Shown here: positions 4,255 through 51,242 of the stretch, one piece after another
Layout: each line of letters opens with the position of its first letter
Position numbering within the stretch: the stretch's first letter is position 1
From: Eledone cirrhosa
Lineage: Eukaryota
Length of the DNA: 64,000 nucleotides
NCBI GenBank assembly: GCA_964016885.1
Contig: OZ024745.1
Coordinates: forward strand, 81,406,001 to 81,470,000
Direction of reading: 5' to 3'
Translations under genes and position numbers: made by a program
The notes under the pieces: model-generated
Told to the model about the DNA's origin: nothing
The model's database searches: none
Seen by the model: only the letters and a program-made list of their open reading frames with translations

Positions 4255-4622
4255 TATGAGAGACGTAAAATAAGAAAATTATAAAATTAACTTACTTACT
4301 AAAATATCACTTCCAACTAATTAGTTTCTGGAATGGAGTAAATATATTTTCCGAAGAAGATATAGAGAAACATTCCGTCGTCAGGGCTAGTAATTCAGTC
4401 CACGCTTTGCTATTTCCTATCCACTGAATTATTGTTTTAATACGTTTCCAGAGTCCTCGCTTTGCCTGGAAACTTAGCTGAGAATAGAATTCCCTGACGA
4501 CCGAATGTTTCTCTATATCTTCTTCGGAAAATATATTTACTCCATTCCAGAAACTAATTAGTTGGAAGTGATATTTTAGTAAGTAAGTTAATTTTATAAT
4601 TTTCTTATTTTACGTCTCTCAT
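4255..4622. repeat. Local inverted duplication (4255-4386 / 4493-4622) of a PLE-type 3' end
   Basis: About 130-bp near-perfect reverse complements. Both arms start at CCCTGACGA and the right arm ends at (TA)n. Confidence 0.85.
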
Positions 4623-30005: not shown

Positions 30006-30917
30006 TTCTTCCTGGAGTTCGTGTATAGCTTTCGTCAGCCATCATTTTCTACCTCTTTTACATATTCTAGTTGTTGGACTACGGCTATACTGGGGCACCA
30101 CTATTCTTATTATATTTTAAATGTAGCTTCACGTCTAACAGCGGTAAATAAACTATAATTAATTGGTTGACTGATATCACCACTGTTTTTTTTTACTTTA
30201 TCTTAAATAGATATTTAATTACTTTTATAGTTGTTATTGCAAAACCTTCTTCTTCTTCTTCTTCTTCTTCTTCTTCTTCTTCTTCTCTGTCTCCGCGACA
30301 TCATCTTTCTCCTGCTTCTCCTTCTCCCTCCTTCTTTAAAACCTCTTAAGTTCAAAACAGAAAAAGACGTATTTTAAAGTTTTCGTTTTGTGGCTATTTG
30401 CCATCTTTATTACAAAACAAGTCTGTGTTTTGAAGTAGCTTTCAACAACAACAAAACAAAAACAAAACAAAAAAAATAATAAAAAAATAAACAACAAACG
30501 TTCATTTATTATTTTACTTGTCTCCCTTCATCTTTGGCAATAGTCCAGACCTATCGTTATTTACCCCGAACATTTTCTTAAGCTTCATCTATCGTTTTCA
30601 AATAATACTCAACGTGCGAAGCACTTCTTAAATTGTATTTTCTTTTCTGCTTTTATGATTTTCCGGTACATTTATTTTGAAAGTATTTTGTTTACTTTCA
30701 AAGAAAAATCCTTCATTTTGCTCCTGTTTATATATTCTTGCATATACTATGAAATCTTATAGCATATTTCAGATAATAGTTGGTTATCAAAATACATAAC
30801 GTAGTATATATGTTGAGTTTCTCCTTTTTTGTTTTTAAATAAAGACATAAATATTTGAGAATTGGGTGCTTGTTTGATATATAAATACACCAGTGTTTAT
30901 TCTGATCCACCGGGAGC

Positions 30918-31272
30918 AGATAGCTAGATCATAGTTGATCCACTGAAAGTAGATAGGCAGTAGTTGATCTACTGAGAGCAGAAAGGTCATAGTTGATCTA
31001 CTGATAGTAGATAGATCATAGTTGATCAACTGATAGTAGATAGATCATTGTTGATCATAGTTGATCTACTGATAGCAGATAGATTGTAGTTGATCTACTG
31101 ATAGTAGACAGATCATAGTTGATCTACTGACAGTCGACAGATCATAGTTGATGTTCAAGTAGATAAATCATAGTTGATCTATTGAAAAGAGTACATAGAT
31201 CATAGTTCAACTACTGAGAGTAGACAGATTATGGTTGAACTAATAAGAACACAAAGATCATAGTTGATCTAC
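30918..31272. repeat. About 29-bp hairpin-forming minisatellite, about 12 units
   Basis: Unit TAGATCATAGTTGATCTACTGATAGTAGA, with internal dyad TAGATCA/TGATCTA. Confidence 0.9.
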
Positions 31273-32285
31273 CGAGTGATCCATGATGAAATTACGACAT
31301 CGTTCAATTTAAACTAGGTGATCTGGGTTTAGTCTTTTGTGGAAATTTAATTTCAATCAAAGTAGATGTAGTCAAGATTACTCCCAAAAGTCAATATTTC
31401 CTTCCTACAAATTTTTGAAAATTTCCATCGTTAAAAACTGGGTACGACGTCATTATGGACATTAATTTTCGTTTCTTGAGGCACACTCGGGTCATTATAA
31501 AAATATTCTCGATATAATATATTAAATCATATAATTAAATTTTAAGGAAGCTTCGCTTTATTTTGTATATTCAGGGACTATTCCAAACGTAATTTCTAGA
31601 AGATTGTTTAAGATTCTATTCGCTGTATTCTGGAAGCATTTACCCAGAGGTCATGCACTAGTAGGAAAGTGATCGACCTCGTGCAACATTATATTTCATA
31701 CTGTAGTGTTAGCATACATCTGAGATAATATGAGATGTCAATTTTATGCCTTTTGTGAAATAAGATACAGCTACATACCTCTTGATATGTATAATGTCAA
31801 TGTGTATATGCTTTTTAATATATGTATAACAATTACAAGGAGGGGAGATGGGCACCACCAGCTCTTTCATTTGAAATACCATAATGGACACAAGGTAAAA
31901 TGTCTAGAGTGGCACACCAATGATTGGCTGCAGCAGTTATAGAGAGATGGGCCCCGCCAAGTATTTCTAAGGACCATTGAAATACCCTGATAGACACAGA
32001 AACATTTCTAAAATAGCATCCCAACGACTGGCAGCACCAGTTAAGTTGATTGATTGATTAATAACAATTACACATGGAACATTCATATCTTTAAAACATC
32101 GTATGCAAAAGTGAAGCGAATTGTTTTTGTCACTTTAGAATATGAAATGATGATAAAATGCAACAAAAAATGAATTTAACAGTTTTTTTTTCTTGTATTT
32201 TTACGATGTTATTACTTTAGTTTCAGCGCATGAACTTCAAAGAAGCCCGCCCCCCTTTTAATGAGTAAACACATTCTAATATAAA

Positions 32286-32668: not shown

Positions 32669-32970
32669 TATTGAGTAGTGACTCGCGTTTCGCTATTGAT
32701 CAGGTCAAGGTTCGATCTGTATCGATCTGGACCGACTTTGGAATGAAAATCTCGTCGGTCCTCTGCTGGAGTAATGACAGAATGAACATTACCCCAGCAG
32801 ATGTCCGACGAGCTTTTGATTCCAGAGTCGGTCCAGAGTCGATCCAGGTCGATACAGATCGAACCTTGAGCTAATCAATAGCGAAACGCGCGTCACTACT
32901 CAATAAACGTAATGAAGGCTTAACAAATCGTCCTTTTATTATTATCATTCTGCTTAGTTCTACACCTCTT
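32669..32970 (+). mobile_element. HHR-bearing 3' end with inverted duplication (palindrome 32669-32905)
   Basis: Each arm has CCGACGA...GAAA-CGCG(C/A)G-UC-ACU. Homologous to 1430-1590. Confidence 0.8.
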
Positions 32971-33054
32971 TACATACATACATATTTATATATACTCTAT
33001 TACTCTTTTATCTGTTCCAGCCATCCGGCTTTATATATATATATACATATATAT

Positions 33055-33662
33055 ATATGAAAAAGTTTGTCCTCATCAGTGGCCATCCAACCGTCGTAGG
33101 CATTTCGTCGCATTAAAGGCCATATACCTCAGGTTGGTGCGAGCAACGGCTAAAAAAAAGTCGTTGGGACACGTAAATAAAGGGGACGCTAGGGTAAACA
33201 AACAAAATGGTTTAAGCAGCAGAACTGGGACTTGTTTCCTTCTTCCTCTCTTTCTGCTGCTTAAACCATTTTGTTTGTTTACCCTAGCGTCCCCTTTATT
33301 TACGTGTCCCAACGACTTTTTTTTAGCCGTTGCTCGCACCAACCTGAGGTATATGGCCTTTAATGCGACGAAATGCCTACGACGGTTGGATGGCCACTGA
33401 TGAGGACAAACTTTTTCATATGTAACCCATTTGCAGCGCCGCAGCTCCATTATTATCATATTTACACATATATTTTTTCCTCCGCTGCCACCAGTCTGTT
33501 TCGTTCTTTGTGTCTTTACCCTTTCTAGCAGTCTCTCTCTGTTAGCCTCTTCCTCACCTTTCACTCACTCACTCTCTGTCACTACCTCTCCTCCTCCCCT
33601 TTCTTCCCGTTTGACCTGTCCACAATCCTTTTCTCGCGGGCACTTGGCCAAGCCGGTATGAA

Positions 33663-33725
<63 letters not shown>

Positions 33726-34112
33726 GCGACTTCACAGAACTTATGTTTACCGAATTCGCAGACCAGACCCCTTCTTCCTCCCGTTAGACCTGTGCGAAAT
33801 TCCTTCCTTGCTCACATTTCAACCAGGTTTGATGGTCTTTATTCTCTCGTTCACGATTCCACCGAATTTATATTCATAGAAATCTGGGACTTGTTTCCTT
33901 CTTCCTCTCTTTCTGCTGCTTAAACCATTTTGTTTGTTTACCCTAGCGTCCCCTTTATTTACGTGTCTCAACGACTTTTTTTAGCCGTTGCTCGCACCAA
34001 CCTGAGGTATATGGCCTTTAATGCGACGAAATGCCTACGACGGTTGGATGGCCACTGATGAGGACAAACTTTTTCATATGTAACCCATTTGCAGCGCCGC
34101 AGCTCCATTATT

Positions 34113-34119
<7 letters not shown>
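33055..34119 (+). mobile_element. Non-coding PLE-like element: inverted repeat + two 236-bp direct repeats, 659-bp period
   Basis: 33225-33461 equals 33884-34119, and 33055-33223 is their reverse complement. (TA)n on both sides; no credible ORF. Confidence 0.9.
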
Positions 34120-36410: not shown

Positions 36411-36485
<75 letters not shown>

Positions 36486-36643
36486 AGGAGGTTATAGTTC
36501 ACTTGAAGCATTGTGTAATGAGGTATAAACGTTTGAATATGTGTAATAAGGCCAAAACAATGCAGGTATGGACATAGAAAAAAGAATGCAATAGTGAAAG
36601 ATATTGATGAGAATTCGTCTTTCACCTTGAATTTATTTAAATG

Positions 36644-36680
36644 TCCTTAATTTTCGAGATAATATCTCTTCTTCGGAGGG
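36644..36680 (-). ncRNA. Minimal hammerhead (CCGAAGA core), with copies at 39778-39814 (-) and 43456-43492 (+)
   Basis: CCU-CCGAAGA-A-GAGAU/AUCUC-GAAAAU-UA-AGG. Identical in all three pLTRs. Confidence 0.65.
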
Positions 36681-37087
36681 AAGTAAAGGTCTCAAACCAG
36701 CGTCTTAAATCTCCAGTCAAGCCATGCTGACCGGAAATAGTATATAGTATCTGTTCTAACTCTAATATCAAAGAATTAAAATTAGGTGGATAAAGAGTAG
36801 TCTCCCTTTAAGAGGGGTTTGTTTAGGTTTTGTATTTATTTTTTTTTTTTTATTTTATATACGTGCCTGTATATCTGTGTGGGAGAATGCATGAAGGTGT
36901 AGGTATGTGGGTGTGTGTGTGTGAGTGTGGGAAGATAGGTCTAATCGTAAAAGTGGGGGGTAGGTGTTATCTGGTGTTAGAACTGGTTTTGTGTGTGTAT
37001 GTGTGAGAGAGAATAAGTGGAGGTGTAAGCATGTGTGTGTGCGCGTGCGTGTGTGTGGGGTGTGTAAATATGGGGCTAGAGGCCCTA

Positions 37088-39645
37088 TCAGGTTATAAAT
37101 TGGGTGTTGAGCTCTAGTCTATTATTGATTGGTGGATGTGTTTTATCTATAATAAGTGCTTCCTTAATTCTAAGATTGCCGAGGTTTCTTTCCTTAGTTT
37201 CTATCCTAACTGTTATGTTTTTATCGGTGTTTTTGCATTTAACTCGGTGTTTCTTAAATGAGGAAGCGTTAGTATTGAGGTGTTCTTTTATTCTTATGTG
37301 GAGTGGTCTGGTGGTGCTACCTACGTAGAAGTTGTTGCATTTGTCACACTCTAGTCTGTATACTACGTAAGCCTGGTGGCATAGGTCTGTGTCGTTGATG
37401 GGGCAGTTGGCTAGTCTGCAGCAGTTGTCATGTCTGGTGGAGTGTCTCTTGGCCAGCCGTCCGCGCAGAGAAGGACCCGAGTGGGCCAGTTGGATATCCA
37501 GTCCCTCTCGTCTGATGGCTCTGCGGATGGCTGTTGTTGTTTCTTCACTGAAGTGTGGGAGCTTCAGGAAGCAAGTGTTAGTGACTCGGGTGTGGTGTCC
37601 TCTGTTCTTTCTGGCACGGTTTGTGGTGGATGTCGTGTATCCGTTCAGTTTGAGTACTTCCAGGAAATGTGTGGTGTGTGTGTCTCGGTCTCTGGCGTCG
37701 GTGAATTTGTTCTTGATACGTGCCAGTTCGTTCTTTATGTATCCGAACTTGGCACCGAGTGGGAGGGCCGATCTGAAATGTACGAACAGTCCCTGCTGGC
37801 GGATTTTTTATAGAAGCAGGTGTGGATGTTGACTTCCTCTGTTACCCTGAGTTGGAAGTCCAGTAGGGATAGGGATCCGCGGTCATCGGTGTGTTCCATG
37901 CTGAACTTTATACAGGCGTCCATGCTGGAGAATGTTGTGTATATTTTCTCTGCCTCCTCACGGGATGATGTAAGGATGAGTATGTCATCTACATATCGGG
38001 TGAAGAAGGCATGGGAATGGCAGGTGTTGAGGGCTCGGCATTCTAGCAGGCCCGAAAGGCTGGATCCCATGGGTAATCCTGTTGTCTGTCTGTATGTGTG
38101 GTGGTGGAAGGTGAAGTACGTGTTGTCTACTGTGAAGGACAAAAGCTGGTGTATGTCCGTCGGGTGGAGGCCGTAGCAGTGGATGTTCTCTGCGACCACG
38201 CAGTCCGTCAATAAATCGACAGCTGGGTGAGCGGGGACTGTAGTGTAGAGGGAGACAACGTCGAGGCTAAAAGCGTATTTATTTAGTTTAAGTTGTTCTG
38301 GCTGGAGTTGGTGTAGTCTACGTATAACTTCGTCGGAGCTACTGACATGCCCGGGGAAGGTGGAGAGTAGAGGCTTGAGGACCTGGGAGAGAAGCCAGGA
38401 AATTTTGTATTGGGGTCCTTCTATGCTAGAGACGATAGGTCTTATTTGCGTCTTAGTGCTATTCTTGTGGGTCTTGATGAGGTGGTAGAAAGTGGGCAGT
38501 CTGCTATTTCTAGTGGTGTAGTTGAGCTTAATTTTATTCGGGAGTTGTCTTCTCCTACAGATATCGAAACAAATGGATTTGGTCTGTTTTTCGATTTGGG
38601 CTGCAGTCATGTCCGGGATCACTGTGTACAATTCACTGCCGCTTAGGTGTTCGAAGGCTAGGTTATTGTATGTGGCTTGAGAGATGACGCAGAACTTTTT
38701 ACCTTTGTCGGATGGTAAGTAAATAAGTTCCTTATTCCGTAGGTTCTTCAGGGCGAGTTGTTGTGTCCTGGAGAGGTTAGGGGCCATCTTCTTCTGTTTC
38801 CGTAAGATGTTAAATACGGAATGTTTTAGTCTCGAGAGTTTTTCTTCCAGCTCGCGGTTGGCGGGCGGTGGATAGAGTGGGCGATCTAGTTGGTATATCG
38901 GGAATCTGGGTGTGGTGGATTCCGTGGTGTTGTTGTCGAGAGTCGATATCCATTTCAGTTGGTAGGCAGCCCGACAGAAATTCGTTTCTATGTCGAGCCA
39001 TAGTCTGTCGTCCAGTCTCTGTTTCAATATGAACTTGGGACCCAGGCTGAGGAGATCTAATTCCTCTCGGGAGAGGGATCCTGTCAAGTCTGTGACGAGG
39101 TGTTTTGCGTCAGGTATGTTGTTGGTCGGGGTGCCGCTAGGTTCGGTGTTGGTAACGTATTGTTCGCCTCTGTTGGTGTTTAGCGTTGGGATGTTGTTAA
39201 GACAGTTGGCCGTCCTGAGTTTGAGAAATGTTTGCGTTAGGCGTATTTTCTCGTAGTCTCGGCGGTGGTGGTATGACCTGTCTATAGTGGCGGAGATGAC
39301 CCTGGACAGAGGTTCTGGGGTTTCAGCGAGTTGTGGTACAAGGCTGGAAATAGTCCGTATGTGATGTTGTAGTGTGCGGTGTAGGTGTTGTATGAGTTTT
39401 CTTAGGCAGAATTTTTGTATGTAACTGAGTGATCGTTTGAGGCCTGGTGATTTGAAGCATGTTGGTAGGTGTAAATTTTTGATGGTTTTGGGGATGATGT
39501 TGTTATTCGGGCATCGTTTTAGGAAGTTTATTTGGCAGCCGGCTTTGGCGCGCTTTTCAGATAGCTGGAAGAGTTTCTTTACAGTTGTCAACTGGGCCTA
39601 GCTCAGGCGTAATGAAAGGAGGAGGTTATAGTTCACTTGAAGCAT
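37088..39645 (-). pseudogene. PLE RT + GIY-YIG ORF, near full length, with few lesions
   Basis: 618-aa ORF 37735-39591 (LGPKF, PSDKG, KTHK, IRPIVS, SLDVVSLYT, GLPMGS, RYVDD). ATG at 39645 with an in-frame TAG at 39598-39600, an 8-codon deletion after GLL and a frameshift near 37790. The endonuclease continues to 37088. Confidence 0.93.
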
Positions 39646-40224
39646 TGTGTAATGAGGTATAAACGTTTGAATATGTGTAATAAGGCCAAAACAATGCAGG
39701 TATGGACATAGAAAAAAGAATGCAATAGTGAAAGATATTGATGAGAATTCGTCTTTCACCTTGAATTTATTTAAATGTCCTTAATTTTCGAGATAATATC
39801 TCTTCTTCGGAGGGAAGTAAAGGTCTCAAACCAGCGTCTTAAATCTCCAGTCAAGCCATGCTGACCGGAAATAGTATAGAGTATCTGTTCTAACTCTAAT
39901 ATCAAAGAATTAGAATTAGGTGGATAAAGAGTAGTCTCCCTTTAAGAGGGGTTTGTTTAGGTTTTTTATTTATTTGTTGTTTTTTTTAATTTTATATACC
40001 TGCCTGTATATGTGTGTGGGAGAATGCATGAAGGTGTAGGTATGTGGGTGTGTGTGTGTGAGTGTGGGAAGATAGGTCTAATCGTAAAAGTGGGGGGTAT
40101 GTGTTATCTGGTGTTAGAACTGGTTTTGTGTGTGTATGTGTGAGAGAGAATAAGTGGAGGTGTAAGCGTGTGTGTGTGCGCGTGCGTTTGTGTGGGGTGT
40201 GTAAATATGGGGCTAGAGGCCCTA

Positions 40225-41087
40225 TCAGGTTATAAATTGGGTGTTGAGCTCTAGTCTATTATTGATTGGTGGATGTGTTTTATCTATAATAAGTGCTTCC
40301 TTAATTCTAAGATTGCCGAGGTTTCTTTCCATAGTTTCTATCCTAACTGTTATGTTTTTATCGGTGTTTTTACATTTAACTCGGTGTTTCTTAAATGAGG
40401 AAGCGTTAGTATTGAGGTGTTCTTTTATTCTTATGTGGAGTGGTCTGGTGGTGCTACCTACGTAGAAGTTGTTGCATTTGTCACACTCTAGTCTGTATAC
40501 TACGTAAGCCTGGTGGCATAGGTCTGTGTCGTTGATGGGGCAGTTGGCTAGTCTGCAGCAGTTGTCATGTCTGGTGGAGTGTCTCTTGGCCAGCCGTCCG
40601 CGCAGAGAAGGACCCGAGTGGGCCAGTTGGATATCCAGTCCCTCTCGTCTTATGGCTCTGCGGATGGCTGTTGTTGTTTCTTCACTGAAGTGTGGGAGCT
40701 TCAGGAAGAAAGTGTTAGTGCCTCGGGTGTGGTGTCCTCTGTTCTTTCTGGCACGGTTTGTGGTGGATGTCGTGTATCCGTTCAGTTTGAGTACTTCCAG
40801 GAAATGTGTGGTGTGTGTGTGTCTCGGTCTCTGGCGTCGGTGCATTTGTTCTTGATACGTGCCAGTTCGTTCTTTATGTATCCGAACTTGGCACCGAGTG
40901 GGAGGGCCGATCTGAAATGTACGAACAGGTCCCAGCTGGCGGATTTTTTATAGAAGCAGGTGTGGATGTTGCCTTCCTCTGTTACCCTGAGTTGGAAGTC
41001 CAGTAGGGATAGGGATCCGCGGTCATCGGGGTGTTCCATGCTGAACTTTATACTGGCGTCCAAGCTGGAGAATGTTGTGTATATTTT
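40225..41087 (-). pseudogene. 3' part of PLE ORF (thumb + GIY-YIG), frameshifted
   Basis: ORFs 40782-41063 and 40225-40845 (VVYRLECDKCNNFYVGSTTRPLHIRIKEH). Confidence 0.92.
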
Positions 41088-41339
41088 CCCAAGTTCATAT
41101 TGAAACAGAGACTGGACGACAGACTATGGCTCGACATAGAAACGAATTTCTGTCGGGCTGCCTACCAACTGAAATGGATATAGACTCTCGACAACAACAC
41201 CACGGAATCCACCACACCCAGATTCCCGATATACCAACTAGATCGCCCAGTCTATCCACCGCCCGCCAACCGCGAGCTGGAAGAAAAACTCTCGAGACTA
41301 AAACATTCCGTATTTAACATCTTACGGAAACAGAAGAAG

Positions 41340-43046
41340 ATGGCCCCTAACCTCTACAGGACACAACAACTCGCCCTGAAGAACCTACGGAATAAGGAAC
41401 TTATTTACTTACCATCCGACAAAGGTAAAGAGTTCTGCGTCATCTCTCAAGCCACATACAATAACCTAGCCTTCGAACACCTAAGCGACAGTGAATTGTA
41501 CACAGTGATCCCGGACATGACTGCAGCCCAAATCGAAAAACAGACCAACTCCATTTGGTTCGATATCTGTAGAAGACAACTCCCGAATAAAATTAAGCTC
41601 AACTACACCACTAGAAATAGCAGACTGCCCACTTTCTACCACCTCATCAAGACCCACAAGAATAGCACTAAGACGCAAATAAGACCTATCGTCTCTAGCA
41701 TAGAAGGACCCCTATACAAAATTTCCTGGCTTCTCTCCCAGGTCCTCAAGCCTCTACTCTCCACCTTCCCCGGGCATGTCAGTAGCTCCGACGAAGTTAT
41801 ACGTAGACTACACCAACTCCAGCCAGAACAACTTAAACTAAATAAATACGCTTTTAGCCTCGACGTTGTCTCCCTCTACACTACAGTCCCCGCTCACCCA
41901 GCTGTCGATTTATTGACGGACTGCGTGGTCGCAGAGAACATCCACTGCTACGGCCTCCACCCGACGGACATACACCAGCTTTTGTCCTTCACAGTAGACA
42001 ACACGTACTTCACCTTCCACCACCACACATACAGACAGACAACAGGATTACCCATGGGATCCAGCCTTTCGGGCCTGCTGGCCATCACCTACATGAACCA
42101 GCTAGAATGCCGAGCCCTCAACACCTGCCATTCCCATGCCTTCTTCACCCGATATGTAGATGACATACTCATCCTTACATCATCCCGTGAGGAGGCAGAG
42201 AAAATATACACAACATTCTCCAGCATAGACGCCAGTATAAAGTTCAGCATGGAACACACCGATGACCGCGGATCCCTATCCCTACTGGACTTCCAACTCA
42301 GGGTAACAGAGGAGGGCAACATCCACACCTGCTTCTATAAAAAATCCGCCAGCAGGGACCTGTTCGTACATTTCAGATCGGCCCTCCCACTCGGTGCCAA
42401 GTTCGGATACATAAAGAACGAACTGGCACGTATCAAGAACAAATGCACCGACGCCAGAGACCGAGACACACACACCACACATTTCCTGGAAGTACTCAAA
42501 CTGAACGGATACACGACATCCACCACAAACCGTGCCAGAAAGAACAGAGGACACCACACTTGCTTCCTGAAGCTCCCACACTTCAGTGAAGAAACAACAA
42601 CAGCCATCCGCAGAGCCATCAGACGAGAGGGACTGGATATACAACTGGCCCACTCGGGTCCTTCTCTGCGCGGACGGCTGGCCAAGAGACACTCCACCAG
42701 ACATGACAACTGCTGCAGACTAGCCAACTGCCCCATCAACGACACAGACCTATGCCACCAGGCTTACGTAGTATACAGACTAGAGTGTGACAAATGCAAC
42801 AACTTCTACGTAGGTAGCACCACCAGACCACTCCACATAAGAATAAAAGAACACCTCAATACTAACGCTTCCTCATTTAAGAAACACCTAGTTAAATGCA
42901 AAAACACCGATAAAAACATAACAGTTAGGATAGAAACTAAGGAAAGAAACCTCGGCAATCTTAGAATTAAGGAAGCACTTATTATAGATAAAACACATCC
43001 ACCAATCAATAATAGACTAGAGCTCAACACCCAATTTATAACCTGA
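41340..43046 (+). CDS. PLE reverse transcriptase-GIY-YIG endonuclease, 5'-truncated but uninterrupted
   Basis: The 568-aa ORF has all RT motifs (RYVDD) and the C-terminal GIY-YIG. The frame extends upstream to the inversion junction at about 41088. Confidence 0.9.
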   Translation: MAPNLYRTQQLALKNLRNKELIYLPSDKGKEFCVISQATYNNLAFEHLSDSELYTVIPDMTAAQIEKQTNSIWFDICRRQLPNKIKLNYTTRNSRLPTFYHLIKTHKNSTKTQIRPIVSSIEGPLYKISWLLSQVLKPLLSTFPGHVSSSDEVIRRLHQLQPEQLKLNKYAFSLDVVSLYTTVPAHPAVDLLTDCVVAENIHCYGLHPTDIHQLLSFTVDNTYFTFHHHTYRQTTGLPMGSSLSGLLAITYMNQLECRALNTCHSHAFFTRYVDDILILTSSREEAEKIYTTFSSIDASIKFSMEHTDDRGSLSLLDFQLRVTEEGNIHTCFYKKSASRDLFVHFRSALPLGAKFGYIKNELARIKNKCTDARDRDTHTTHFLEVLKLNGYTTSTTNRARKNRGHHTCFLKLPHFSEETTTAIRRAIRREGLDIQLAHSGPSLRGRLAKRHSTRHDNCCRLANCPINDTDLCHQAYVVYRLECDKCNNFYVGSTTRPLHIRIKEHLNTNASSFKKHLVKCKNTDKNITVRIETKERNLGNLRIKEALIIDKTHPPINNRLELNTQFIT

Positions 43047-43629
43047 TAGGGCCTCTAGCCCCATATTTACACACCCCACACACACGCACGCGCACACACA
43101 CATGCTTACACCTCCACTTATTCTCTCTCACACATACACACACAAAACCAGTTCTAACACCAGATAACACCTACCCCCCACTTTTACGATTAGACCTATC
43201 TTCCCACACTCACACACACACACCCACATACCTACACCTTCATGCATTCTCCCACACACATATACAGGCACGTATATAAAATTAAAAAATAAATAAATAA
43301 ATAAAAAACCTAAACAAACCCCTCTTAAAGGGAGACTACTCTTTATCCACCTAATTTTAATTCTTTGATATTAGAGTTAGAACAGATACTCTATACTATT
43401 TCCGGTCAGCATGGCTTGACTGGAGATTTAAGACGCTGGTTTGAGACCTTTACTTCCCTCCGAAGAAGAGATATTATCTCGAAAATTAAGGACATTTAAA
43501 TAAATTCAAGGTGAAAGACGAATTCTCATCAATATCTTTCACTATTGCATTCTTTTTTCTATGTCCATACCTGCATTGTTTTGGCCTTATTACACATATT
43601 CAAACGTTCATATATATATATATGCATAT

Positions 43630-45628
43630 AAATTACACAATTATCAAAGTTATGTTCAAATCATATTATTGCTGACAATCGTTTCTTCCAAACTTTCGTT
43701 TGGTGTCATCGGAGCATTAGCAATGTTTGTACATATAATTAACCTCCTATTCAACTGAACAATCATATAGATACATATATATTGATGTTGTGAACAACAG
43801 TTTCGTATTTAAAGAGTGGAATGGATGCGACATAGACGAGAATTGTACAATAATTCAAATTAAATTCTGTTGAATAGGAGGTTAATTATATGTACAAACA
43901 TTGCTAATGCTCCGATGACTCCAAACGAAAGTTTGGAAGAAAGATTGTCAGCAATAAAATGATTTGAACATAACTTTGATAATTGTGTAATTTATATTCC
44001 TGCTCTGTAAAACACCTGATGTTATTACATTGAGTTATTTCTCTTACTGGTAATAAATAGTAATAAATTACTGACCTTTCCTGTTTATAGTTGTTTATAG
44101 TATATACATAACTATAAATAGTATCATTATTATTATTAACTGCTCCATACTGTTGAGCTAACATACATTAAATTACAAGTATGCTAATCAAATATTACCT
44201 TCCTATGTCTACTAAGAACATACCAATACCACTCAGAGATACATATGAAAAATGATTGATTAATAGTGTCAACTCTTTTATCAATAGAGTGAGATGGAGG
44301 ACATTCCATTACGATAGAAACCGATCAGACAACAACAGAGATACAAATAATTTCGACTCTTGCAGCTTTAAAACTTTTAAAAGCCTTCCTCACAACACCT
44401 TATTAAACTCTTTTGAACATGATCTAATAAAACTAGTTAAGAACATAAGGTACAAAAAACATCGTAATAGTAACAACACCTTCTTAAACAACCTTAAAGG
44501 ATTTAATAAAAAAAAAAATTCTAGTACATGCAGATAAAACTAATAATATATATAGCTTACATTAAGATACATATAGAAAATTTATATATAAAGAACTACA
44601 TAGGAGCTATAAGAAAACTACTATTAAAAACCTAGAAGATATAAATATAGAAGGCCGTAGTATAGTGTGTAAATTAGGACTTCAGAGACATACACAGCCA
44701 TACACCCCTAACCCCCCCCCCCCCAAGATTCTCTCTGAAGGACCATAAAGAAGACTTCATTAGTAACCCTTCGATAAGACTAATTTGCCCTTCCAAATCG
44801 GACATTGGTATTATCAGCAAGAAAATATTAGATAGAATCATCCCACAGTTTAAGCACAAAATATATCTTAACCAGTGGGGAACTACAGGTGAAGTTATTG
44901 AATGGTTCAAGGATATTAAAGAGAATAAAAATAAAAAATGTATACAATTTGATATCAATTCATACTACACTTCTATTTCCTCTATCCTATTAAATAAGGC
45001 ATTAATTATGGCCTTGAACAACAGTGACCTGACTAGATCCCAAATTGATGTCATCCTTGCGGCCCGAAAAACCATAATTACATTTGAAGATCAATTATGG
45101 ACCCGCAAGCATACACACAACAACTTTGACATAACTATGGGATCTAGTGACTCGGCACAGGTCACTGATTTGGTGGGCCTATATCTACTAAATGAAATTC
45201 ATAAGAACCTACCCTACCTCAATCGTGGTTTATACCGCGATGATGCACTACTCCTTATAGACTATAAAAAATTTAATATAGAAAGAACTAGGAAAGAATT
45301 ACATAAAATTTTCAAAAACTTCAACTTAAGTATCACCTTAGATAAAAACATTAAAAACGTTAACTTCCTTTGCCTGGACTCTAAAATATATACACCCTTT
45401 CATAAACCAAACGAAAAACTAATTTATGTGGATACCAACTATAACCACCCTAAATCCATATTAAACTCAATTACTAAAGGAATATCTAAAAGAATCTCTA
45501 ATCTATCATTTAACGAAACCATATTTAACAATAATTCACAATACTATAATGAGGCCTTAGCTAAATCAGGCCATAAAAATGAGATTGAATTTCTACCTAT
45601 AAAATCACATAGTTACAACATTATTTAG
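43630..45628 (+). mobile_element. Decayed PLE, 3'-truncated, with inverted (43630-43755) and direct (from 43869) pLTR
   Basis: STKNIPIP, RVRWRTFHY, IRLICPSKSDIG, FDITMGSSDSAQVTDLVGL, GLYRDD and NHP motifs over 44181-45628. Confidence 0.9.
43670..43716 (-). ncRNA. Minimal hammerhead (CCGAUGA core), with its inverted twin at 43908-43953 (+)
   Basis: UGCU-CCGAUGA-..CCAAAC-GAAA-GUUUGG..-GAAA-CGAUUG-UC-AGCA. Confidence 0.75.
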
Positions 45629-48456: not shown

Positions 48457-50684
48457 CTACATTTTAAATTTATATTTATATTTAAACGTTGACTTCAATC
48501 TATGTCTGCAGCAACTGAATAGATTGCTCCTTAGATTAAGGGAATTTTTGGATTTTAATATAAAGAATATCTCCTCCACACAGAGATCACATGTCTCAGA
48601 TGAGGAATTAAAAGGAATCCCTCTTGAGACAATATTCCAAAACATCGAATACCCAACATTATCACGTTTAAGTTGCCAGAGTAAGCTTGATAGCGAAGTT
48701 GAAAATTTTTTGTTTGGATCTGTGAAAGAATTCTTATGATTATTGAAGCGAAGTTTAAATTCTGTCGAGGTGGAACCAACATAGTTGAAAGAATTTAAGT
48801 TAGTTTTAACATTACAATTGTATATTATATTTTTAACTAAGCAATTGTTATTTAACGGACATTTAGATTTATTTCTACAGTTACAGTTATTTAATTTAAT
48901 ATTGTTTGGGTTATTATTGGTATTTTGGTTAGGTTTTAAATTCTTATTATTAATTCTGTTAATATTTTGTGCTAAATTTTTGGTGGACGAGTAAGTTAAT
49001 TTTATAGTATGTCTATTAAAAATTGAGTGATATTTATGTGTTCTAGGGAAGCGTTTGTCAAGAGCATTAAAGAATAGTTTAGCAATTTGGGTTTTAATAT
49101 TTAGTGAGAAAGGGGGGGCAAACCATATTATATTTCTAGTTCTATTTCTGTCCGGCTTTTGGAATTATTGTAATGTTTTCTATTATAGTTGTTAATGTTG
49201 TTACCGTAATTAAAATTATTATTATTATTTTGGTTAGTTTGCTTATTATTATCGATGTACTTAATTTTATCACTATATCCTGCTCTAGCTAACGCTTCAT
49301 TGTAATACTGCGCTTTTTCATCAAATATATTTTTATTAGATGAAATTCTTGAGATTCGCTCTTGAACAGAGTTCACTATAGTATTTTTAACAGATCTGGG
49401 GTGATTAGAGTTAAAATTGACATAATTCAAGTTTTCATTTAGTTTGTGAAATGGATAGTGAAGACATGTGTTGAGATTTAGTGTTACATCTAGGAAATTG
49501 ACTATTCTATGGTTATTCTCTATTTCTATTTTTAGATTAAGGTAATTAAAAAATTGTATAATTTGTTTTCTTTTTCTATTTAGTTCAGAGTTATTATTTT
49601 CAATAAGTAAAAGCATGTCATCACGATATAATCCTCCGGTTACACCTGGTATTTTTCTATGCAGCGAATTAATTATAAATAGGCCCACAAGGTCCGTTAC
49701 CTGAGCTGAGTCAGATGATCCCATAGTTATGTCGAAATTAGTATCTCTATCTGCCCTAGTCCATAGTTGGTTATTAAATGCTATCAATGTTTTCCTTGCC
49801 GATAATATAATGTGCATTTCATTGCTAGTTAGGTCTGTATGTTTGAATGCGTAATTTAGTGCCTTATTCAGTAGATTAGGGGTGATAGATGAATAGTAGT
49901 TAGCAATATCAAGTTGAATAAATTTATTATTATTGTTATATTTAATTTCTTTAAACCACTCAATAACCTCACCAGTCCCCTTCCATAACTTTAAGTAAGG
50001 TAAATTATGTAAGTTTTTAATTTGCTGTATCACTCTGTCTAGAATGTTTTTGCTAAGTTTACCCAGGTCAGATTTTGATGGTGCAATCAATCTGACTGGC
50101 AAATCATTTTCAAAATTTCTTTTGTGATCTTTCATATTGATCTTGGGTTTCCTAGGCATGAAGGGTTGTGTTTTGTTCTCAATGTCTAATTCATGCATTA
50201 TACAAGATGCCTCAGCATTCATTTTTTCCAGTTCGTCCTTACTTGCTACCTTGTACTTTTTCCTTAGTTCTTTCAATATAAGGCCACTATACATGTCGTC
50301 CTTTTGCACTCCATAAAGATTGTTGGTTTTGTCCGATTTCACCAAGATCTTCTCTGTTCTCTCCAAGCCTTCAATATTATCCTTACTGCTTCTTAGATAG
50401 TCCTGGCCTTTGAAGTTTCTCTTGAATTTGATTCCTTGGATGATAGAAATTATATCGTTTTCAAAATCCATTAATAGTTTGTTGGGGGGTGGATTTTTTT
50501 TAGATTTGAAAACTTTATCTAAATCTGAAACATTTTCATTTAGATTAGATTTATCAAAGTGGAAGGCACGCCACCTGATTCTTCTTATAAAAGAGTCTGA
50601 TTTTTCTATTAATTGTTTAATAAAGTCTTTGTTCTTAGGTAAAGGTATGTCTTTTAGAGAAGAAGATATCTTAAAGAATTCCAT
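48457..50684 (-). pseudogene. PLE RT + GIY-YIG ORF with about two frameshifts
   Basis: 518-aa RT ORF 49128-50684 (GLYRDD), continuing through CNCRNKSKCPL, IIYNC...YVGST and CDLC...LNLRSNLFSCCRH to 48457. Confidence 0.93.
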
Positions 50685-51242
50685 TTTTTCAGTTATAATA
50701 TAAAGCTATTTCTCTCTGTTTTTCTTTACATACATTTCTTCTTTCTCTCCGTCTTTCTTTCTAACTGTGCTTAACACTATAACTAAATAATTATAATCAC
50801 CTCACTACCAAGCCAGCTTCCTACCTTAATGGTGGCTTATATTTATGGTACGTCTAAATTATTTATAAAACAGTTTATATATTGTATTTTATCTGACGAA
50901 GGCATGCCATATTTTTAATATGGTATCCCTGAAATATGTATAATGAAATAAATATGGTTTTATAAATATAGTTTCCATTTGTTTACTATCGTATATATAT
51001 ATATATATATATATACAAATATATGTATAAATGTGTGTGTATGTGTATATGTTTGTGTGTCTAAGTGTATGCATATATACATTAATTTACTGAAGACTAC
51101 ACACACTGGAATCCATGCAACGCTAAAATATATAATGACGCGTATGTTTGTGCATCTGCACTAAAGTGTTTTACTAACACATTACGAATATTTTCTTACA
51201 GTTAAAATCTCCAACTGTCCTAGTCTTCATGCACAGATACAT

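Follow-up and report, generated by a model that had tools for sequence, protein, structure and literature searches.

The closest described relatives of the motif studied here are the type SGC hammerhead ribozymes (HRIMA-1 and a variant; Eckert et al. 2023, PMC10085705), named after the order of their S (site), G (GAAA) and C (CUGAnGA) blocks. According to excerpts of that paper, these RNAs cleave in vitro as single molecules at 0.007–0.19 per minute, with compensatory mutants in support; stem II is required, and the published descriptor demands at least 3 bp of it. The same excerpts trace SGC RNAs to metatranscriptomes, with none found in genomes of known organisms, and type CSG had previously been represented by two metagenome sequences only, as far as the consulted text goes. 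Among retroelements, the animal non-LTR retrozymes (Cervera and de la Pena 2020, PMC7229834; PMC7761336; preprint 10.64898/2026.07.22.740005) carry type I hammerheads, and the excerpted sources report RtcB ligation far above self-ligation (PMC7229834) and dimer cleavage by minimal Penelope hammerheads (PMC7761336); the preprint, in the part available, searched for type I only. For an anole Penelope-like element, the portion of PMC11167929 used here describes a hammerhead that depends on protein and is dispensable for insertion in vitro, with no cleavage-site reads. Naiad Penelope-like elements (Craig et al. 2021, PMC8557442) are reported in the excerpted text to be without canonical hammerheads, only 'HHR_core' or 'HHR_half_core' being flagged, with eight 'half cores', and a permuted fold is not described there. 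Searches of the Creative Commons part of PubMed Central and of bioRxiv brought up no account of permuted hammerheads in animal genomes or Naiads, and the excerpts of PMC10162972 contain no passage on permuted or extra-helix hammerheads.

The DNA analysed here is a 64,000-nt stretch of the Eledone cirrhosa genome (GCA_964016885.1, contig OZ024745.1, positions 81,406,001 to 81,470,000), hereafter the window, in whose own numbering positions are given. The original prediction, made from the letters of the window, had proposed a strand-scrambled hammerhead at 33339..33407 with core strands in the order A–C–B. Each strand is present where it had been placed (A at 33347-58, C at 33369-78, B at 33392-404), and the three are the S, G and C blocks of PMC10085705, as excerpted. 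The hammerhead core (CUGANGA, GAAA and NUH) is present and in register, as are stems I and III around U33352-A33353, and the order is SGC, not type I as non-LTR retrozymes require. The claim that A–C–B is a non-circular order stands; the idea of a new topology does not, the order being that of published type SGC (PMC10085705, same excerpts). The motif's location was right and its extent was not, the conserved domain spanning about 33304-33408 and beginning 35 nt further upstream. As claimed, 33339-33407 is an exact match of 33997-34065, and an inverted exact copy exists as well, at 33069-33137 and not at 33071-33139. The insertion and its parts are as follows:

33052..34119, no strand assigned: whole insertion of the non-coding repeat, an inverted 5' piece plus 1.36 tandem units, with (TA)n at either end
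33052..33224, minus strand: 5' piece in inverted orientation, containing an entire ribozyme domain (core 33069-33137) and ending tail-free at the short 3' end
33304..33408, plus strand: ribozyme domain copy 1, comprising adapter strand, S block, G block and C block
33305..33309, plus strand: 5' strand of P0, partner 33404/5-33408 immediately after CUGAUGA
33310..33332, plus strand: hairpin between P0 and PII', 89% paired, both-side changes in 6 of 7 pairs, independently predicted by RNAalifold
33334..33338, plus strand: 5' strand of PII' (UCGCA), partner 33364-68 (UGCGA) in the stem III loop, replacing stem II
33339..33344, plus strand: 5' strand of P-ext, partner 33384-89
33347..33360, plus strand: S block (strand A), with stem III 5' strand, U16.1-A17, predicted cut 33353|33354 and stem I strand
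33361..33363, plus strand: UAA linker from stem I to PII', invariant in 27 copies and pattern-fixed for families found later by pattern search
33364..33378, plus strand: G block (strand C), with PII' 3' strand, N11.1, GAAA and stem III 3' strand
33384..33408, plus strand: P-ext 3' strand and C block (strand B), with stem I strand 33390-96, CUGAUGA 33397-403, N10.1 and P0 3' strand
33425..33465, plus strand: optional tail of about 40 nt, bounded by the short 3' end (71 nt past the predicted cut) and the long one (100 to 120 nt past it)
33963..34066, plus strand: ribozyme domain copy 2, predicted cut 34011|34012

The predicted cut sites of copies 1 and 2 are spaced 658 nt, or one unit. An Rfam scan of the window returned neither a hammerhead nor a twister match; none of the 113 matches at E≤1 was a hammerhead. 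A descriptor for the A–C–B order matched the window three times, versus 0.013 times per 64 kb in 150 dinucleotide-matched random sequences. A twister reading, suggested by a UAAUGC word in the linker, was dropped because the word is not kept in Naiad loci, and a loop–linker kissing contact (UUA/UAA) was omitted for want of covariation.

Compared with type SGC, the window motif has the same block order, an intact core and a stem I strand within the stem III loop, and a linker of about 3 nt likewise leads to a 5-bp helix ahead of GAAA. The partners differ. In the published RNAs, as excerpted, the strand before GAAA pairs with the 3' flank of the C block to give stem II, whereas here its partner is the upstream adapter (PII'). 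The published 'I' helix, absent here, joins both flanks of the C block; in the present motif the C block's 3' flank pairs with the adapter (P0), and P-ext connects the flanks of the S and C blocks. Unlike the published SGC RNAs, the present motif is genomic and sits in an animal. It would fail the published SGC descriptor because a stem II of at least 3 bp is demanded, and we file it as a variant that would work like type SGC, outside the published alignments.

Covariation was examined in 27 copies, hand-picked from about 150 distinct listed ones and 38–95% identical. The domain comprises six helices with compensatory changes (P0, hairpin, PII', P-ext, III and I), in which 87.8% of 972 cells are paired and both-side changes occur in 27 of 36 pairs; none of 500 shuffles reached that level, and slid controls were 33–47% paired. 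With 18 copies, 92.6% of 648 cells were paired and 17 of 36 pairs changed on both sides. RNAalifold, unaided, recovered the hairpin, P-ext and stem III. Significance was judged by a home-made tree-aware G-test over 4,950 column pairs, of which the top six are all proposed pairs and four reach E≤0.05, split evenly between stem I and P-ext, while no single pair of P0, PII' or stem III does so. By helix, stem I is 88% paired with both-side changes in 7/7 pairs (two at E≤0.04) and P-ext 92% with changes in 5/6 (two at E≤0.03). Stem III, including A15.1-U16.1, has 97% of cells paired and both-side changes in 3/5 pairs, with few independent events (best E=4). PII' is 89% paired (2/5 pairs; best E=0.9) and P0 83% (3/4 pairs; E=50, not significant), the latter also visible by inspection in Naiad loci. 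The covariation check across homologs that had been proposed for the motif thus favours it, stems I and III being held with compensatory changes in 27 diverged copies. The single G-C pair read earlier as stem II fared differently: a stem II between the C and G blocks is not conserved, and 10.1-11.1, which gives no covariation signal in the tree-aware test of 27 copies (E about 1,230), pairs in 17/27 copies and in 1/13 Naiad loci. N11.1 can pair with N10.1 in those 17 copies and with the upstream strand in 11/27. The upstream helices that stand in for stem II had been overlooked. Where stem I, PII' and P-ext meet, positions 33338, 33360 and 33390 also covary non-canonically (E=0.5 and 3.5), which could reflect a base triple or shared ancestry.

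Core conservation can be read from the five families found by homology alone, since for families beyond these the search patterns fixed core and spacing and invariance is built in. In the five, 0/11 core positions vary, versus 22/57 other positions (p=0.002). N7 takes all four bases and H17 three, while the catalytic positions stay fixed; in the 27 copies H17 can be A, C or U but is in no case G, the search patterns having fixed H for most families. An altered G5 occurs in 204 matches (control 10), about 1.3%, dispersed over subfamilies among the 100 listed. Folded singly, the window copy is less distinctive: its z-score is just −1.2, and without pseudoknots another fold is favoured (68% vs 19%) in a model that leaves out stems I and PII', whose pseudoknotted duplex energies are −8.7 and −5.2 kcal/mol, respectively.

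The window copy belongs to a large superfamily. Pattern counts in the genome, of about 3.0 Gb, gave 808 matches for the window subfamily (control 0), 15,162 for a fixed-spacing pattern (control 4) and an additional 451 for a pattern with a different stem III (control 0). Of 41 scored window-subfamily matches, 40 show 100% identity across 130-131 nt. Four more families came from homology searches started at neighbouring copies, and further ones from fixed-spacing patterns. Units are non-coding and pyrimidine-rich, mostly 470–660 nt long, with one ribozyme domain each and no ORF, the longest ATG frame of a unit having 73 codons. Copies are 5'-truncated, frequently with an inverted 5' piece, and stand in partial tandems; arrays of 16 and 8 units occur within 10-kb stretches. 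Copy ends lie in (TA)n or (CA)n, 71 nt or 100–120 nt beyond the predicted cut, 26/29 copies stopping at 100–120 nt and 3/29 continuing into the next unit. This insertion anatomy, with its partial tandems, 5' inversions, tails and (TA)n targets, is Penelope-type. The window tail matches the 30–40 bp tail described in excerpts of PMC8557442 and PMC11167929, and the repeat's tail fits the two internal reverse-transcription start sites given in the latter. Long head-to-tail arrays of 492-516 nt ribozyme-bearing units were observed at two loci of G000:C1 (L145, 111.79-111.80 Mb; L146, 81.63-81.69 Mb), the L145 array opening with an inverted unit. Beyond the genome, a metagenome pattern scan for the window's own subfamilies returned 0 matches, and none of 88 pattern matches in viral contigs was a Naiad relative. 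Six low-depth contig pieces of the repeat family were seen in a second organism (B, run X4) by comparison with 33225-33660; contigs of three sequencing runs gave no start or end information for the repeat, and no RNA run was listed as containing it. ORFs beside copies in six loci (L109, L122, L133, L134, L086 and L088) could not be linked to the ribozyme.

As in animal non-LTR retrozymes, the units are non-coding tandems with one ribozyme per unit, and mobilisation by Penelope-like elements has likewise been proposed for retrozymes in the excerpted sources. Retrozymes were defined there by type I hammerheads and demonstrated circular RNAs; the present units are 470–660 nt long and SGC in order. 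Naiads, as excerpted from Craig et al. (PMC8557442), resemble the repeat in 5' truncation, partial tandems, an inverted 5' piece, a 30–40 bp tail and (TA)n bias; unlike them, the window element is without an ORF. In the E. cirrhosa genome, Naiads were seen only as decayed remnants, although the window subfamily is young. One exact codon pattern (11 matches, control 12) led to six decayed Naiad-like remnants, one of which keeps GAAA-N23-CUGAUGA behind the RT motif, a remnant to which the RNA model gives no score. A Naiad remnant used as query gave no match in a word-based protein search, whereas a HMMER search did find relatives: starting from such a remnant, we recovered full-length proteins with N-terminal GIY-YIG and C-terminal RT. 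Three of these Naiad-type proteins (P0156, P0178 and P0265) were observed to carry a C-terminal ubiquitin carboxyl-terminal hydrolase (UCH) domain.

The same RNA fold recurs in the 3' region of Naiad-type elements. Of 523 confirmed metagenome loci, the best 80 were examined, seven having too little 3' sequence, which left 73. When any of the six block orders was allowed, the descriptor matched 9 of the 73, all SGC, on the sense strand and behind the ORF (antisense 1, Markov controls 0). Among 11 further CUGANGA-bearing loci, 4 show the fold by inspection, below threshold, giving 13 positive loci in about four loose groups, six of them forming one 73–99% cluster. In the other 60 loci the motif is absent from the available stretch, many such stretches being short, and 53 have no CUGANGA there. 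PII' is 5–6 bp with N11.1 included in 13/13 positive loci, and at least 6 bp in 11/13 versus 19% of control strands; the linker is 2–5 nt and U/A-rich. Block spacings are near-constant (S–G 15–18 nt, G–C 23–33 nt) in units of 3–4 kb. An RNA model built from E. cirrhosa copies alone placed four of these Naiad sites in its top five matches over 292 kb searched (E=3e-5 at best, then 0.04, 0.07 and 0.9). The 3' end is common to the repeat and an autonomous clade, Naiad.

Published Naiad 3' ends tell a similar story, with the proviso that 27 of the 54 consensus sequences of PMC8557442, itself seen in excerpts, were inspected by eye, with counts not computed and names taken from table order. Eight of the 27 show SGC with the same periphery (two octopuses, a squid, a coral, a hydrozoan, a cubozoan, a ctenophore and an acanthocephalan) and two show SGC with a different periphery (spider and ostracod). 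Four are in CSG order (three nematodes and a spider), with full stems and an I-helix (PMC8557442 File S5). In the other 13, nothing was clear by eye in the stretch inspected.

Judging from sequence comparison, we consider it likely that the window holds a conserved S-G-C-order hammerhead fold in a high-copy non-coding repeat, probably non-autonomous and derived from Naiads, with self-cleavage predicted 3' of A33353. The original prediction's pseudoknotted single-unit alternative and its cut site are backed by covariation and by the pLTR-type setting, the cut being placed at 33353|33354 by analogy. Cleavage after A33353 would proceed by ordinary hammerhead chemistry, with folding inside one unit. 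The local hairpin of P-ext and stem III would form first, its 20-nt loop presenting two short strands, one to the C block (stem I) and one to the upstream adapter (PII'), and the C block's 3' flank would pair with the adapter's 5' part (P0). As these strands pair with the adapter, a helical junction would replace stem II, and PII' would link the stem II side to the distal end of stem I, the role of loop–loop contacts in classical hammerheads. Cuts in successive units would give unit-length RNA, and some 20 bp spread over four helices may keep its two ends together, which would promote circularisation. A Penelope-type RT/GIY-YIG protein would then copy uncut or circular RNA into (TA)n from an internal start 70–120 nt beyond the cut; genomic 3' ends beyond the cut imply a template RNA that was uncut or re-joined.

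Other readings account for part of these data. The fold might be real and serve mainly as a protein-recognition or reverse-transcription-start signal, its core being structural or cutting only with protein, which we regard as unlikely. The missing stem II, the rival fold in the window copy and the protein-assisted, dispensable hammerhead of the excerpted PMC11167929 all fit such a role, as do copies that end downstream of the cut, so that uncut RNA may be the template. Against it, precisely the catalytic positions are fixed while N7 and H17 vary, and no amplified G5-mutant subfamily appears among the 100 listed of the 204 altered-G5 matches.

Less probable still is a ribozyme completed only across two tandem units or molecules in classical order (A1+B1+C2), the original prediction's other proposal. 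Near-identical tandem units, common tandems and arrays, and the dimer cleavage of minimal Penelope hammerheads (PMC7761336, as excerpted) speak for it, and covariation is blind to the choice between single-unit and two-repeat folds because tandem units are identical. However, P-ext and stem III form an alignment-predicted local hairpin that would be made about 600 nt before the next unit; block spacings are short and nearly fixed even in Naiad loci with 3–4 kb units; the classical fold requires the stem II that is absent here; and SGC RNAs cleave as single molecules (PMC10085705, as excerpted). Chance co-occurrence of short motifs, aided by the palindrome UGGCCA, had been offered as a caveat and now seems hardly credible. 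The window's stem I is indeed palindromic and single-sequence folding unremarkable, but in sister families stem I is no palindrome and carries compensatory changes, the same fold stands in Naiad loci, and control counts, tree-aware covariation and the random-sequence rate given above refute coincidence.

On the preferred reading of a single-unit SGC-order fold, a broader picture appears plausible, and on balance we favour it, with less assurance than the reading of the window itself: non-circularly permuted hammerheads may be native to a large part of the Naiad clade, in a four-strand SGC version without stem II among animals ranging from ctenophores and cnidarians to cephalopods, and as CSG in nematodes and a spider. 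Here the SGC form would have founded a superfamily resembling retrozymes, with over 15,000 copies; by clamping the two cut ends, its fold may let the RNA circularise itself. If so, a topology otherwise known from environmental RNA alone would gain its first members in animal genomes, and no earlier natural hammerhead would have had a junction in place of stem II. The SGC fold would explain the report that Naiads lack canonical hammerheads, the descriptors having missed permuted ones, and this published character of a major retrotransposon clade would be overturned. Non-circular permutations would gain a known host and a biological job, and a hammerhead core working without stem II would revise the ribozyme's minimal definition. 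With a construct of 110 nt and many naturally compensated variants, cleavage, folding and ligation can be tested directly, and the young family with its near-identical copies offers a handle on the role of hammerheads in Penelope-like transposition.

The window holds further retroelements and motifs. A Penelope-like element at 36484-43610 has RT and C-terminal GIY-YIG, tandem and inverted pieces and a (TA)n end; it has no sequence in common with the unit beyond 10–15 nt words. A retroelement protein in the window has named relatives from Octopus, and no solved structure matched the window RT. Near 43460-43484, copies of that element show a type-I-like hammerhead core with CCGAAGA in place of CUGANGA. 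More RT-like ORF pieces, with no Pfam match, lie at 44678-45628 (plus strand) and 48457-50705 (minus strand). A 74-nt inverted repeat at 32669-32905 has GAAA and a palindromic stem III with UC, like minimal type I hammerheads, and no recognisable CUGANGA. A degenerate 29-nt tandem repeat occupies 30898-31297, and several motifs resembling canonical type I hammerheads, from other repeat families, occur at 4494, 4830, 9001, 46059 and 50893.
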